A stretch of DNA of 64,000 nt, from assembly GCA_963758295.1 (NCBI GenBank), contig CAVWUU010000001.1, positions 480,001-544,000 of the forward strand, written 5' to 3'. Position 1 is the stretch's first letter. Each line of letters opens with the position of its first letter. The position numbers and the translations under genes were made by a program. The notes under the pieces are model-generated. The model did no database searches. It was not told where the DNA came from and was given only the letters and a program-made list of their open reading frames with translations. This stretch comes from Candidatus Eremiobacteria bacterium (GTDB taxonomy: Bacteria > Vulcanimicrobiota > Vulcanimicrobiia > Vulcanimicrobiales > Vulcanimicrobiaceae). Below, piece by piece: positions 30,481 to 47,392 of this stretch.

Positions 30481-32013
30481 CTAAGTGCTGAACCAGCCGG
30501 AAGGAACGACGTCGAGATTAACGTTGATCTGCTTCACTTCGGTGTACGCGTCGTAACCATAGGTTCCGAGTTCGCGGCCGATTCCCGATTGTTTGTATCC
30601 GCCCCACGGTGCTTCGTTGTACGTGGGGTGGTAAGTGTTTATCCACGTGATGCCGGCGCGAAGCTTGCGAATGACGCGGTGCGCCTTCGCAACGTCTTGC
30701 GTGAAGACGGCACCGGCCAAACCGTAGATGGTATCGTTGGCGAGCCGAATTGCGTCGGCTTCGTCCTTGAACGTCTGTACCACAAGCACCGGCCCAAAGA
30801 TTTCTTCGCGGACGATGCGCATGTTCGGCGTCGTGCGATCGAAGATCGTCGGTGCGATGAAGTTTCCGCCCGCAAGCGGCCCCTCTAAGCGTGTGCCGCC
30901 GCAGCGAAGGCGAGCACCCTCCTCTTGACCGATCCGGATATAGTTTTCGACTTTGCCTGCATGCGTTCGGGAAATCAAGGGCCCCATCTCGGTCTGCGTA
31001 TCGAACCCGTTACCAACGCGAATCTTCTGCGCGCGTTCCACTAGCGCATCTACGAAGCGATCGGCAACAGTCTCTTGAACGATGAGCCGCGAACCCGCGG
31101 AGCAAACTTGTCCCGCATTGGCATAGATACCGAAGAGCGCGTAATCGACGGCCGTATCGAAATCCGCGTCGTCGAAGACAACGTTCGGTGATTTACCGCC
31201 GAGCTCAAGCGAGATCTTCTTGAGATTGCCGGTAGCCGCGCGCATGATCGAGCGGCCTGTCACCGTTCCACCGGTAAAAGCCACTTTGTCAACGAGGTCA
31301 TTTTCGGCGATCTCCGCACCGACTTCCGCTCCCGCCCCAAGAACGACGTTTACGACGCCCTGCGGAAATTCAAGCTCTTCAAACAGCGTCGCAAGACGCA
31401 GCAACGAAAGCGGCGTCAGTTCCGAAGGCTTGATGACGCAGGTGTTGCCCGCGGCGAGCGCCGGCGCAAGTTTCCACGCGCCCATGAGGAGCGGATAGTT
31501 CCACGGAATGATTTGGCCGCATACGCCTATCGGTTCGCGAACCGTGAACGTTTGCGAAGGCGCCGGCACATCGAAAGTTTGGCCGTGCGGTTTGGTCGCA
31601 AGGCCGGCGTAGAAGCGGAAGCAATTAGCGGCGTCTGCTACGTCGTACTCGGTCTCGCGCAGCGGCTTCCCGTTATTGAGCGTATCGATGCGTTTGAGCT
31701 CGTCGGCGTGTTCGTCGATCTTGTCGGCCAGACGCATTAGCAGCCGGGCGCGGTCTTGCGCGCTCGTTTCGCGCCAGGGCCCCTCGAAGAACGCGCGGTG
31801 CGCGCTTTCGATTGCGCGCTGTGCGTCTTCCCGCGTCCCTTCAGCAACCGTTGCGATGGTGGCGCCGGTGGCGGGATCGATGAGCGCGCGCGTGTTGCCG
31901 TTCGACGCTTCGCACCAACGCCCGTCGACGTACATGAGCGTCGTGCCGCCCGAACGCGGCAAATTGCGCAAAATGTGCTCGGCGTTACCTGAGCTCGGTG
32001 CGAGCGTATCCAT
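30481..32013 (-). CDS. Aldehyde dehydrogenase (aminoaldehyde/betaine-aldehyde type)
   Basis: [57 protein letters not shown]. Confidence 0.93.
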
Positions 32014-33391
32014 AGAGTTCCTTGTCTTCGTCGGAGGTAAGTGACGACATTTCGTGGAGCGATTCTTCCACGGCACCGCAAACGAGATCGGCTTGTTCGT
32101 CGGTGATAGTGAGCGGCGGTTCGATGCGAATGACGCGAGCGTTCACGAGGGTTCCGGAAACGAGAATGCCTCGATCGAGAAGGCGGCGCCCGAACTCAAA
32201 GCCCGTCACGTCATCGTGAAATTCCAACGCCATCAAGAGGCCCTTACCCCGAACATCTACGACGATGTCCGGATACTCGTCGACCGCGTTCCGTAACCCT
32301 TCCAGCATTCGCGCGCCAATGCGGGCGGCGCGAGCCGGCAGGTCTTCTTCCAGAAGCACGTTGATCGTTGCCAACGCCGCTGCGCAGGCAAGCGGGTTAC
32401 CGCCGAACGTCGTCGTGTGAAGGAACGGATTGTCGAACAGCCTCGAAAAGACGTCGCGGCTTCCAATGACTGCGCCCGCCGGAATGACGCCGCCGCCGAA
32501 GGCTTTCGCGAGACACAGAATGTCCGGCGCTACGCCGTAATGCTCGAAACAAAACATCTTGCCGGTGCGGCCCATCCCGGTCTGCACTTCATCAAGGATG
32601 AGCAGCGCGCCGAATTCATCGCAAAGCGCACGGACGCCGGGCAAGTAATTGTCCGATGGGAACGTTCACGCCCCCTTCGCCTTGAATCGGCTCAAGCAGC
32701 ACCGCGCCGACGTCTTCGCCTACCATTCGCAGGCGCTCGAACTTGTCGTGCAGCGCTTCCAAGTCATTGAACGGGAAGTGTTCGATGCCTGGAAGCAGTG
32801 CGCCGAACGGACGCCGGAACTCACCTTTCGCGCTTACGGAAAGCGAGCCGAAGCTCTTCCCATGAAAGCCCTTCGTTGCGGCGATGATCGTTTGTTTCGA
32901 CGGGTTATATGCGCGCGCTAGTTTTAAGGCCGCTTCGACCGTTTCCGTGCCGCTGTTGCAGAAGAAGCTGTACTGGAGATTGGGCGGCGTGAGCATGGAC
33001 AGCGCTTTCGAAAGCATTGCGCGCAGCGGATCGAGCAGGTCTTGGCTATGCAGCGGCTGGCGGTCCAATTGAGCTTTGACGGCCGCGATTACTTTGGGAT
33101 GACGATGGCCGACGTTGAAAATGCCGAATCCGCCAAGGCAATCGAGATACTCCTTGCCTTGTACGTCGCGATAGCTGTTCGGCCCCGCATCGCTCCATTC
33201 CACGACCGCGCCGGCGCCGTCGATCTTCGTAGCTTTGCGGTATTCGAGGAAGCCCGGGTTAATATGGTCCCGAAAGTTCTCGACCGTTTCCCGCGTGATC
33301 CATGCGGCTTGATCCGGCGAAATTGCCGGGGTTTCGATTAGATCTAGAACTTTCTGCGTATACTCAAGAACTTCAGACTTAGAGCGTTCAA
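31985..33391 (-). CDS. patA: Putrescine aminotransferase (one frameshift near 32650; start approximate)
   Basis: [67 protein letters not shown] closely follow E. coli PatA/YgjG. Confidence 0.9.
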
Positions 33392-34681
33392 GAATTTTCT
33401 TTCACCTCCGCGGTAGCGAGGACTTTATGGCAACACTCGCCGATGCGCTGAAGCGCTTCGTCGAGGTCGGCGTCGTCGATTACGAGGGGTACCAAGGCTC
33501 GTATGACGTTGCCCGCACCGGCGGGCATGAGTAAAACGCCGCGCTCGCGCGCTTCCGCGATGATGCGCGCGACGTCCAGAGTTCGATCCGCGTTAAACTC
33601 GATGCCGATCATGGCTCCAAGTCCGCGGACTTCTGCAATCGCTTGGGGATAACGCGTGGCGAGATCGTTGAATTGCGCGCGAATGCGTTCGCCGACGGCA
33701 TTTGCTCGATGCGAGCATCTCGTCCAGGGCTTCGATACTCGCGATAGCCGCCGCGCATGCGACCGGATTGCCGGCATAAGTGCCGCCCAAACCGCCCGGA
33801 GCCGGAGCATCCATGATCTCGGCTTTGCCGACAACCGCAGCGAGCGGCATTCCGCCCGCTAAAGATTTGGCAACCGTAATGATGTCGGGCTCGATGCCCG
33901 AGTGTTCGACCGCAAAGCGTTTTCCGGTTCGTCCGAATCCGCTTTGTATTTCATCGCAGATCAGCACGATGCCATGCCGGTCGCATAACGAGCGCAGCGC
34001 CTTCATGAACTCAACGGGTGCGGGAATAAAACCGCCTTCGCCGAGCACCGGCTCGACGATGATGGCTGCAATTCGCTCGGGCGCGACCGTGCTTGAAAAA
34101 ATTTCATCGAGCGCTTCGAGCGCGCGTCGCGTTGTCCAGCCGTGCAATGCGTGCGGAAACGGCGCGTGATAGATCTCGCTGCAGAACGGCCCGAAGTTTT
34201 GCTTGTACGGAACGTTCTTGCCGGTCATCGAGAGCGCCAGCAACGTTCGACCGTGATAGCCGTGCTGAAATGCCAGAACCGCGGGACGGCCGGTATACGC
34301 ACGCGCGATTTTAACGGCGTTTTCGGTTGCTTCCGATCCGGTCGAGAGCAGGAGCGTTTTTTTGGCCGACGGCCCGGGCGCGATGCGATTGAGCGCCTCG
34401 GCAACTTCAACGTACGGCTCATATGACGTCACTTGGAAACACAGGTGCGTGTAGAGTCCCGCCTGGTGGCGAATCGCTTCGACGACGGCGGGATTGGCGT
34501 GGCCTAAGTTCATCACGCCGATGCCGCCCACGAAATCGAGATACTCCCGGCCGTCGGCATCCCAGACGCGCGCTCCCGAAGCGCGGGCGATCGAAATGGG
34601 ATGGACGCACGAAACGCCGCGGGGAACGGCTTCCGCGCGACGGCGCGCCATTTCCGAATTCAGAGAGCTGATCGCCTGCAT
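33388..34681 (-). CDS. gabT: 4-aminobutyrate--2-oxoglutarate transaminase (frameshift near 33700)
   Basis: AVPRGV, DFVGGIGV, TGSEATENAVKIAR, YHGRT..MTGK..PYK, EPVLGEGGF, DEIQSGFGRTG, AKSLAGGMPL. Confidence 0.9.
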
Positions 34682-45875: not shown

Positions 45876-45923
45876 ATGGAGCCTCCAACGAAAAAAGCGC
45901 GAAACATTGGTATTCCTCACCAA
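45876..45923. promoter_or_regulatory. Paired 17-bp boxes in the permease/ALDH divergent region
   Basis: ATGGA-N7-ACGAA (45876) and a perfect TTGGT-N7-ACCAA (45907), 31 bp apart. Confidence 0.55.
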
Positions 45924-45958
45924 AGGCACGGCCGCTCGGGCGGTTCAAGTCTGCGCTC

Positions 45959-47392
45959 ATGCTCCTGGAAGGGCGCCACTTCCCTGCTTTGATCGCCGGC
46001 CGAAGCGCGGACGGCTTCGCGTCGGAAGCCATCCGCAGTCCCTACGACGACTCCTTAGCGGGCACGGTCGCGGTTGCGGGCGACCCAGAAATGGAAACCG
46101 CGATTGCCGCCGCGCATGGTTCGGCGCGAGAATTCGGCCGCATACCGCGCTACCGGCGCGCGGAGATCCTGCGCGGCATTGCCGCCCAACTTGCAGATCG
46201 CGTAGACGAACTTGGCGCGCTGATGGTGGCGGAGTCCGGAAAGCCTCAGCGTTTTGCGCGCATCGAAGTAGCCCGTGCCGTAACGACGTTCTCACTGGCG
46301 GCCGATGAGATGACGCGCTCGGGCGGAGAAGTGCTTCCGCTTGACTTGAGCGCTGCAACCGTCGGGTACTCCGCAATTTCAACATTCCGGCCGATCGGCG
46401 TCATCGGCGCGATCGCGCCGTTCAACTTTCCGTTGAATCTGGTTGCGCATAAGTTGGCTCCGGCAATTGCGGTCGGCAATCCGGTGGTCTTGAAAGCGCC
46501 GCCTCAGGCCCCGCTCTGCGCGCACGTACTTGGCGAAATCGCCGTGGAAGCCGGCGTACCGCCGGAAGCGCTGTCGGTCCTACATACGCCGGTCGCGGTC
46601 GCACAGCGTCTTGCGACTGACGAGCGAATCGCTATGCTTTCGTTTACCGGGTCCAGCGGCGTCGGCTGGCATCTAAAATCGATCGCCGGGCGCAAACGTG
46701 TCGCTCTGGAATTGGGCGGCAACGCGGCGGCGATAATTTGCAGCGATGCGGACCTGGCGTTTGCGGCGCGGCGTTGCGCGCTCGGCGCATTCGCGCAGGC
46801 GGGGCAAGTGTGCATCAAGGTGCAGCGGATGTTCGTCGTTCAAGACGTGTACGAACGTTTTCGCGAGCTGCTACTGAACGAAATCGAATCCCTCCGATGT
46901 GGCGATCCGCGCGATGCCGGCGTGGTCGTCGGTCCGGTCATCGATGCTGCGAGCGCCGCACGCATCATGGCGTGGATCGGCGAAGCGGTCGACGGCGGTG
47001 CGCGCGTGCTATGTGGTAACCGGCGGGAGGGAAACGTTATCGCGCCCACCCTGCTCGAGGGAACCATCGATAGCATGCGCGTTGAATGCGAAGAAGTCTT
47101 TGGCCCGGTTGCCACGATATCGCCGGTCGCATCGCTCGAGGAAGCAATTTCGCGAACGAATGCATCGCGTTTTGGTTTGCAGGCCGGCGTCTTCACTTAC
47201 GACATGCGAGCCGTAACACGAGCATTCGACGAGCTGGAGGTGGGCGGCGTGATCGCTAACGATTATCCAACGTTGCGCGTCGACAACATGCCGTACGGCG
47301 GCGTGAAAGAGAGCGGCTTCGGCCGCGAAGGGGTTCGCTACGCGATGGAAGAGATGAGCGAACGGAAGGTCTTGGTCCTCAACTACCGCTAA
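45959..47392 (+). CDS. Aldehyde dehydrogenase family protein
   Basis: [50 protein letters not shown]. Confidence 0.92.

Follow-up and report, generated by a model that had tools for sequence, protein, structure and literature searches.

In this work we have analysed a stretch of 64,000 nucleotides (positions 480,001 to 544,000 of contig CAVWUU010000001.1, assembly GCA_963758295.1), called here the window, which comes from a metagenome-assembled genome (MAG) of the Eremiobacterota (Vulcanimicrobiota), that of an uncultured soil bacterium. Our subject is a cluster of genes of amine catabolism at 30481-47392, and in particular a pair on the plus strand, in which the gene of a TonB-dependent outer-membrane receptor of about 1190 amino acids (36507..40068) is followed directly by an intact gene for a flavin amine oxidase of 526 amino acids that is predicted to be exported (40068..41648). 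The TAA of the receptor (40066-40068) and the ATG of the oxidase (40068-40070) share one base in the sequence TAATG, an overlap which had been pointed out in a first-pass annotation of this DNA and which proved to be real when both genes were read. The plus-strand group begins with the gene of a PucR-type transcriptional regulator (34775..36380). Divergent from it, with the two starts about 90 bp apart, the minus strand carries, in order of transcription, gabT for a 4-aminobutyrate (GABA) aminotransferase (33388..34684), patA for a predicted putrescine aminotransferase (31985..33401) and the gene of an aldehyde dehydrogenase of the aminoaldehyde/betaine-aldehyde type, ALDH1 (30481..32013; its start may be at 32013 or at 31938). 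A second minus-strand block converges on the oxidase and consists of an APC-family amino acid/amine permease (44452..45846; Pfam AA_permease and AA_permease_2), a class-III omega-aminotransferase, AT3 (43148..44455), and mmsA, which encodes a CoA-acylating (methyl)malonate-semialdehyde dehydrogenase (41652..43151). Divergent from the permease, again on the plus strand, lies ALDH2, a candidate succinate-semialdehyde dehydrogenase (SSADH) gene (about 45959..47392, the start being approximate). These identities come from Pfam and NCBIfam profile scans, and all the genes listed in the first-pass annotation were recovered in the order it gave; what it had overlooked is that four of them are broken in the assembly by six frameshifts.

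Both members of the central pair are well assigned to their families. Even in its frameshifted form the receptor has an N-terminal CarboxypepD_reg domain (1.1e-18), a Plug domain (E=4.5e-7) and a TonB_dep_Rec_b-barrel domain (1.3e-15), and its N-terminus, for which a start codon and a ribosome-binding site were read in the sequence, resembles a signal peptide, so that by its plug, barrel and N-terminus it belongs to the TonB-dependent receptors. The oxidase, which is single-copy in this genome, matches PF01593 (Amino_oxidase) with E=4e-47 over positions 1-443 of the 443 of the profile and contains the FAD-binding GxGxxG motif as VIGAGIAGL, which places it in the flavin amine oxidase superfamily. 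Its homologues come overwhelmingly from Eremiobacterota MAGs.

Are the four broken genes still functional? We located the frame changes by tblastn with the intact orthologues of the relative L007. There is one in patA (about 32658-32695, frames -3 and -1), one in gabT (about 33708-33719, frames -1 and -2), one in the PucR regulator (about 35364-35410, frames +2 and +3) and three in the receptor (about 38663-38729, 39306 and 39777), whose gene is thereby spread over four frames. In L007 patA and gabT are single open reading frames of 458 and 432 amino acids, and elsewhere among the relatives the regulator (536-559 amino acids) and the receptor (1175-1216 amino acids) are likewise undivided. It could be that the locus is decaying in this genome, the six frameshifts being real and patA, gabT, pucR and the receptor gene having become pseudogenes. 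The six changes are indeed concentrated in 7.2 kb, with clean flanks at 30.5-32.0 kb and 40.1-54.4 kb, and none of them lies in a long homopolymer. However, leuS, which exists in a sole copy in this genome (window 5090-7328), is equally shattered into at least six frame pieces, none of them above the family cut-off, and such a genome would not be viable. The fragments of patA, gabT and the regulator are 77-91% identical to L007 and those of the receptor 55-68%, in all cases with no in-frame stops. A short-read contig from run X1 that covers 39262-39519 with one mismatch (depth 2.2) has one base fewer at 39287, and the absence of this base brings two of the receptor frames back into register; the pieces obtained from runs X2 and X3 were all of 90-95% likeness and belonged to other organisms. 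The genome itself is a long-read MAG of 6 contigs and 3.03 Mb with an estimated completeness of 82%. Given the shattered leuS, the splitting of other genes at 0.3-7.4 kb, the high identity of stop-free fragments and the X1 contig, the six frameshifts are most likely consensus or sequencing errors of the assembly rather than signs of gene decay, which we regard as improbable. The split or partial genes near the start of the window are those of ComEC (322-2570), an epimerase (3006-3617) and a FAD_binding_3 protein (3840-4436). Indel errors are thus patchy in this assembly, and in such stretches its gene calls and completeness estimates are unreliable.

The coupling of the receptor to the oxidase and the linkage of this pair to the putrescine genes, both put forward in the first-pass annotation, were borne out by the relatives. 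We compared two sets of loci. The first consists of 12 Eremiobacterota loci found with the oxidase as query; the receptor stands directly before the oxidase in 11 of them, the contig of the twelfth beginning at the oxidase, and the whole arrangement (ALDH1-patA-gabT, divergent PucR-receptor-oxidase, an insert of 0-6 kb, then mmsA-AT3-APC) is present in eight. The second set comprises 20 loci, chosen so that the identity of the oxidase runs from 36% to 64% and two families of the class are represented, and it repeats three genomes of the first (L053 is L006, L054 is L004 and L061 is L009). Here the receptor is adjacent to the oxidase in 16 loci and within about 6 kb in two more. ALDH1 is present in all 20, patA in 18 and gabT in 17, which confirms that the receptor orthologues remain linked to these genes; the PucR regulator was found in 12 and an APC permease of the window's type in 13, in seven of them directly beside the oxidase. 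By contrast mmsA occurs in only 4/20 and AT3, at 60% identity or more, in 2/20. The conserved core is therefore receptor-oxidase(-permease) together with patA-gabT-ALDH1, and the beta-alanine-type branch (mmsA-AT3), which had at first been taken for an integral part of the locus, is an addition in the close relatives of the window only. In the phylum as sampled, the oxidase is present in 170 of 401 genomes and in 121 of the 247 of high quality; these two tallies take in a few unpublished genomes, and none of the fetched loci comes from those.

Some details of these loci deserve mention. Between the oxidase and mmsA, the relatives L002, L003, L004, L010, L005 and L006 differ in an insert of 1.3-6 kb. 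In some of them it encodes a PEP_mutase-family enzyme along with a MarR regulator and a protein of the glyoxalase family, in others a PALP enzyme and DUF4282; that of L003 has in addition the genes of an SDR protein, an isochorismatase, a TPP enzyme and an ABM monooxygenase. In L059 (G079, 5454-14182) two copies of the receptor, each about 55% identical to that of L007 and both members of the receptor clade described below, flank the oxidase. Stop-free frames of 1408-1745 amino acids surround the oxidase in G232 (L061), G180 and G282. Since the receptor and oxidase matches of L061 lie in different frames, such a long frame has probably stayed open by chance across the receptor gene and does not mark a fusion.

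Orthology of the receptor could not be judged by an E-value threshold, a test which we rejected because close paralogues exist, and a tree was used instead (34 receptors, FastTree with SH-like supports, rooted on one long-branched paralogue). One clade with a support of 98 holds all 24 receptors adjacent to an oxidase, the two that are nearby and five of the eight that are not oxidase-adjacent. Among the clade members without the oxidase, the receptor of L083 stands beside gabT-patA-ALDH1. Those of L079 and L081 are found beside Amidohydro_3 enzymes and those of L079 and L080 beside APC permeases; L079 also has a DAO-type flavoprotein at this place, and the receptor of L078 neighbours a second amine-oxidase-like protein of 630 amino acids. 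The members of this clade look like receptors of nitrogenous compounds that are each paired with a processing enzyme and often have an APC permease as well. The phylum may thus possess a larger repertoire of modules for nitrogen compounds, built from a receptor, a processing enzyme and a permease. The first-pass annotation had called the locus similar to a polysaccharide utilisation locus (PUL). This holds in a loose sense only: there is no SusD-family partner, every open reading frame of at least 140 amino acids between 30 and 48 kb belonging to other families, and the place directly after the receptor is taken by the oxidase.

Where would the oxidase act? The canonical motif of twin-arginine translocation (Tat), RRxF[LIV], followed by a hydrophobic stretch rich in A, G and L, is present in 10 of 13 divergent homologues, and many homologues have a lipobox-like ACG after the hydrophobic stretch. 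No open reading frame with CxxCH, as expected of a cytochrome c, was found in 29-49.5 kb. In a recent survey of Tat-bearing amine oxidoreductases, the enzymes with an adjacent cytochrome c were dehydrogenases, and most of those that lacked one proved in assays to be true O2 oxidases (PMC12224317). With Tat signals in the family and no cytochrome c gene nearby, the window enzyme is probably a periplasmic, O2-using and H2O2-forming amine oxidase, and the periplasmic location proposed earlier for it is thus likely. A peculiarity of the family is a conserved stretch of 10-50 residues before the twin-arginine motif, unusual for the n-region of a Tat signal; in the window oxidase (40068-40190) and its homologues (alignment A1; L068-L072) it reads MARSPL..AL.R... 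or, in the family f3, ...LLRRIHAAY...P.DEVF.

The chemistry proposed for the cytoplasmic enzymes in the first-pass annotation is coherent, leading from an aminoaldehyde dehydrogenase through GabT to an SSADH-like aldehyde dehydrogenase. ALDH1 (Pfam Aldedh, E=1.6e-181) is 91% identical to its L007 orthologue; its best NCBIfam model is betaine-aldehyde dehydrogenase (BADH; 631 bits, short of the cut-off of 668.6), with that of aminobutyraldehyde dehydrogenase next, and its best matches in the PDB are the BADH of S. aureus (1e-166) and a plant aminoaldehyde dehydrogenase (1e-128). The two halves of PatA match NF008570 at positions 71-259 (285.8 bits) and 260-459 (313.6 bits); the cut-off of 612 for this family (NF008570 / TIGR03372) is meant for the whole protein, and the pieces scanned excluded the N-terminal 70 positions. 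GabT scores 443 bits against TIGR00700 with its N-terminal part and 56.8 bits with its C-terminal part. ALDH2 (Pfam Aldedh, E=1.3e-134) reaches no NCBIfam cut-off, and its best PDB matches are 5j6b/5jry and the moss ALDH21 5mz5 at 9e-110, with SSADHs at about 1e-74. Judged by these families, PatA, ALDH1, GabT and ALDH2 would constitute a complete route from a C4 diamine to succinate. MmsA is a clear member of its subfamily (TIGR01722, 673.6 bits against a cut-off of 448.5), and AT3 passes the cut-off of NF004718 (540.8 bits against 472). The nearest solved relative of AT3 is taurine:2-oxoglutarate aminotransferase (6jix, E=3e-100), and its assignment to beta-alanine is drawn from the adjacent mmsA only. 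A route formed by AT3 and MmsA from a C3 amino acid to acetyl-CoA is plausible in this genus. The APC permease is 78% identical to its L007 orthologue. The regulator has the N-terminal PucR domain (PF07905, 7.7e-29), GGDEF_2 (PF17853, 9.5e-15) and HTH_30 (PF13556, 1.1e-16), spread over the two frames of its gene, and is a member of the PucR type. In Corynebacterium glutamicum, GabR is a PucR-type activator encoded divergently to gabT (PMC7652997).

The fold of the oxidase was compared with those of solved enzymes. An AlphaFold2 model built from 60 homologues has a mean predicted local distance difference test (pLDDT) score of 88. Invariant acidic and aromatic residues of the oxidase include D105, H108, E215, W467 and F500. 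In Foldseek it matched cyclohexylamine oxidase, bacterial and mammalian monoamine oxidases (MAO) and putrescine oxidase with a target template-modelling (TM) score of 0.84-0.86, and the snake L-amino-acid oxidases lower, with 0.72-0.75. An independent all-against-representatives structural alignment of the model gave Z scores of 39.2 for cyclohexylamine oxidase (CHAO), 38.3 for bacterial MAO, 37.9 for putrescine oxidase (18% identity), 37.7 for methylaminobutanoate oxidase, 37.1 for MAO-A, 33.5 for L-amino-acid oxidase and 32.7 for LSD1; one of the bacterial MAO entries among the top fold matches was solved with putrescine. An identity as L-amino-acid oxidase was considered and rejected. The motif GAMRIP of those enzymes aligns to GAMIDS in ours, so that the place of the arginine (Arg90 of the snake enzyme), which we take to bind the alpha-carboxylate of the substrate, is held by Met103, conserved in at least 90% of the 60 homologues. 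These residues point to a substrate which is not an amino acid.

The gene context gives good support to the view that the locus scavenges amines and does so with a TonB receptor. More specifically, we favour with moderate confidence the reading that it is a conserved locus of the Eremiobacteria by which aliphatic amines are scavenged from outside the cell, and the most likely ones are di- or polyamines (putrescine, spermidine and their relatives). The gene identities, the conserved linkage, the export signals and the fold class are observed, and from them we infer what the oxidase acts on and forms, what the receptor binds, which way the flux runs and how the locus is regulated. According to this proposal the receptor would carry the amine across the outer membrane. 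In the periplasm, the Tat-exported flavoprotein of the MAO/putrescine-oxidase fold, translationally coupled to the receptor, would oxidise a C-N bond with O2 and yield an aminoaldehyde, ammonia or a smaller amine, and H2O2, and the APC permease would import the product or products. In the cytoplasm PatA could convert the diamine to an aminoaldehyde, which ALDH1 would oxidise to GABA or beta-alanine; GabT and ALDH2 would then take GABA to succinate and, in this genus, AT3 and MmsA would take beta-alanine to acetyl-CoA. The divergent PucR-type regulator may switch both operons on.

Several points weigh against this reading. The receptor subfamily is broader than the oxidase, as the receptor query matches 242 of the 401 genomes at E <= 1e-150 compared with 170 for the oxidase, and this genome has a receptor paralogue, 48% identical, in an unrelated neighbourhood with a CitMHS transporter and an NAD(P)H-binding protein, which gives no hint of amines. 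The receptor is absent from two of the 20 loci of the second set (L058 and L062). Oxidase homologues at 31-36% identity, from Saprospiraceae (L013 and L014) and other classes of Eremiobacterota (L073-L076), have unrelated neighbours, so that the receptor-oxidase coupling appears confined to the clade of at least 36% identity. The Tat motif of the window oxidase itself is degenerate, its N-terminus reading RRSRAEFL followed by GGAVVAGAVFGPVL. Near-identical X1 contigs reached one of the six frameshift sites, and the read check thus covers this site at a depth of 2.2. The oxidase is only 16-22% identical to any solved enzyme, and its fold class also takes in enzymes acting on nicotine, cyclohexylamine, aromatic monoamines and methylaminobutyrate. 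The polyamine oxidases rank lower than the enzymes named above, with Z scores of 31.9 for the maize polyamine oxidase and 29.1 for Fms1 and spermine oxidase (SMOX), and the spermidine dehydrogenase SpdH is the lowest with 20.8. Lastly, PatA and an oxidase of putrescine type would be redundant, which favours a larger substrate for the oxidase; this is an argument and not data.

Could the oxidase then cleave spermidine or spermine in the periplasm, so that a C4 unit goes to PatA and GabT and a C3 unit to AT3 and MmsA? Such a cleavage, which the first-pass annotation had assumed, would explain why both the oxidase and PatA are kept, PatA taking the released diamine, and also why a beta-alanine-type branch with an mmsA above its cut-off stands in the same block in this genus. 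An ALDH1 of the aminoaldehyde-dehydrogenase type would fit as well, and putrescine oxidases cleave spermidine too, if slowly. Against this, the fold groups the oxidase with enzymes that act on primary amines, namely the cyclohexylamine, monoamine and putrescine oxidases (Z 37-39), and places it further from the maize polyamine oxidase, Fms1 and SMOX (Z 29-32), although a rank by fold does not decide the substrate; its phmmer matches to polyamine oxidases cover the FAD N-terminus only. The C3 branch, to judge from the rarity of mmsA and AT3 in the second set, is not co-inherited with the oxidase, and the closest solved relative of AT3 acts on taurine. We consider spermidine cleavage a tentative possibility. 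The same fold data raise the question whether the enzyme is simply a periplasmic oxidase of diamines, putrescine or cadaverine. It would produce aminobutanal (1-pyrroline), which would enter the pathway at ALDH1 with PatA as a parallel cytoplasmic route. The Z score of putrescine oxidase and the presence of a bacterial MAO solved with putrescine among the top matches speak for this, the conserved core would need only ALDH1, GabT and an SSADH, and in L083 the receptor is associated with gabT-patA-ALDH1 where the oxidase is missing. On the other hand, such an oxidase would duplicate PatA, which is kept in 18 of 20 loci, a TonB-dependent receptor for a diamine of 88 Da would be unusual, and the identity to putrescine oxidase is as low as 18%. 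A plain diamine oxidase seems to us rather unlikely.

It may also be that the locus serves another class of amines, such as aromatic or biogenic monoamines, alkaloids, or N-substituted and conjugated amines, and that the putrescine and GABA genes are there merely as co-regulated functions of nitrogen scavenging. The fold class does include oxidases of cyclohexylamine, nicotine, 6-hydroxynicotine, pseudooxynicotine and aromatic amines with Z scores of 33-39, and the pairing of sister receptors with amidohydrolases hints at conjugated substrates. Yet patA, gabT and ALDH1 stay linked to the pair while the identity of the oxidase falls from 64% to 36%, and unless they share a pathway this is difficult to account for; we therefore think it unlikely that di- and polyamines are not the substrates.

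How does the locus compare with known systems? The putrescine aminotransferase pathway of E. coli consists of PatA (YgjG), PatD, GabT and GabD. The window has the same enzyme families, and they follow one another in the same logic, from a putrescine aminotransferase by way of an aminoaldehyde dehydrogenase and a GABA aminotransferase to a semialdehyde dehydrogenase, but here their genes stand together with those of a TonB-dependent receptor, an amine oxidase predicted to be exported and a PucR regulator. The gamma-glutamylation (Puu) route has no counterpart in this locus. The actinobacterial putrescine oxidase PuO of Rhodococcus erythropolis (PDB 2yg3) shares the fold of the window enzyme (root-mean-square deviation 2.8 over 428 aligned residues at the Z score given above) and is a flavin amine oxidase feeding an aminoaldehyde into GABA metabolism, as ours would do. 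It differs in sequence and in location, PuO being cytoplasmic whereas the window family has Tat signals and is coupled to an outer-membrane receptor. In Pseudomonas aeruginosa, SpdH cleaves spermidine in the periplasm and bauABCD provides a beta-alanine aminotransferase and a malonate-semialdehyde dehydrogenase, a working logic similar to that of the window locus; SpdH (7d9f) is, however, the most distant amine-oxidoreductase fold listed, and we know of no TonB receptor coupled to it. The polysaccharide utilisation loci of Bacteroidota are SusC/SusD systems. Like the window locus, they bring together a TonB receptor of the CarboxypepD_reg type, an enzyme that processes the substrate in the periplasm, a transporter of the inner membrane, catabolic enzymes of the cytoplasm and a dedicated regulator, whereas the window locus lacks a SusD-like lipoprotein and glycoside hydrolases and its substrate would be an amine. 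NicA2 and Pnao of Pseudomonas putida S16 are enzymes of the MAO fold exported to the periplasm by Tat (PMC12224317; see also PMC9396064). Pnao aligns with the window oxidase at Z 34.3 and NicA2 structures were among the Foldseek matches. Both are dehydrogenases of nicotine metabolites that rely on a cytochrome c encoded next to them, unlike the window locus with its context of aliphatic amine catabolism and no CxxCH gene. Finally, in the GabR-gabTDP system of Corynebacterium glutamicum a divergent PucR-type activator governs the genes for GABA aminotransferase, semialdehyde dehydrogenase and a permease (PMC7652997), but in the window the regulator gene is the first of an operon that continues with the TonB receptor and the amine oxidase.

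Taken singly, the enzyme families of the locus are all known, and the downstream pathways belong to textbook biochemistry. What we did not find in print is the combination, a TonB-dependent receptor translationally coupled to an amine oxidase with predicted Tat export within putrescine/GABA catabolism; in the full texts searched, no paper described a TonB receptor that is coupled to an amine oxidase or serves the use of polyamines. The combination suggests an undescribed route for scavenging di- or polyamines. We go further only with hesitation: perhaps polyamine uptake is energy-coupled and TonB-dependent here, and the receptor clade, a cleaving oxidase in the periplasm and uptake of the fragments by the APC permease amount to a "PUL" for organic nitrogen. 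Should this doubtful idea be true, the sister receptors with amidohydrolases would treat conjugated amines likewise. If the receptor does bind a di- or polyamine, small organic cations would join the substrates of TonB-dependent transport, and a widespread, mostly uncultured soil phylum would be seen to scavenge organic nitrogen at low concentrations. The oxidase is a soluble target encoded by a single gene and lends itself to direct expression and assay.

Two further observations concern the surroundings of the locus. At 10342-13718 of the window two neighbouring genes each have a weak match to Peptidase_S10, a serine-carboxypeptidase family that is uncommon in bacteria. The amine locus itself lies between selA (25955-27724) and selB (47405-49282). 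In the relatives L056-L058, L060, L011 and L012 selB follows directly after the oxidase, from which it would seem that mmsA-AT3-APC-ALDH2 was inserted between these two genes in the lineage of the window.

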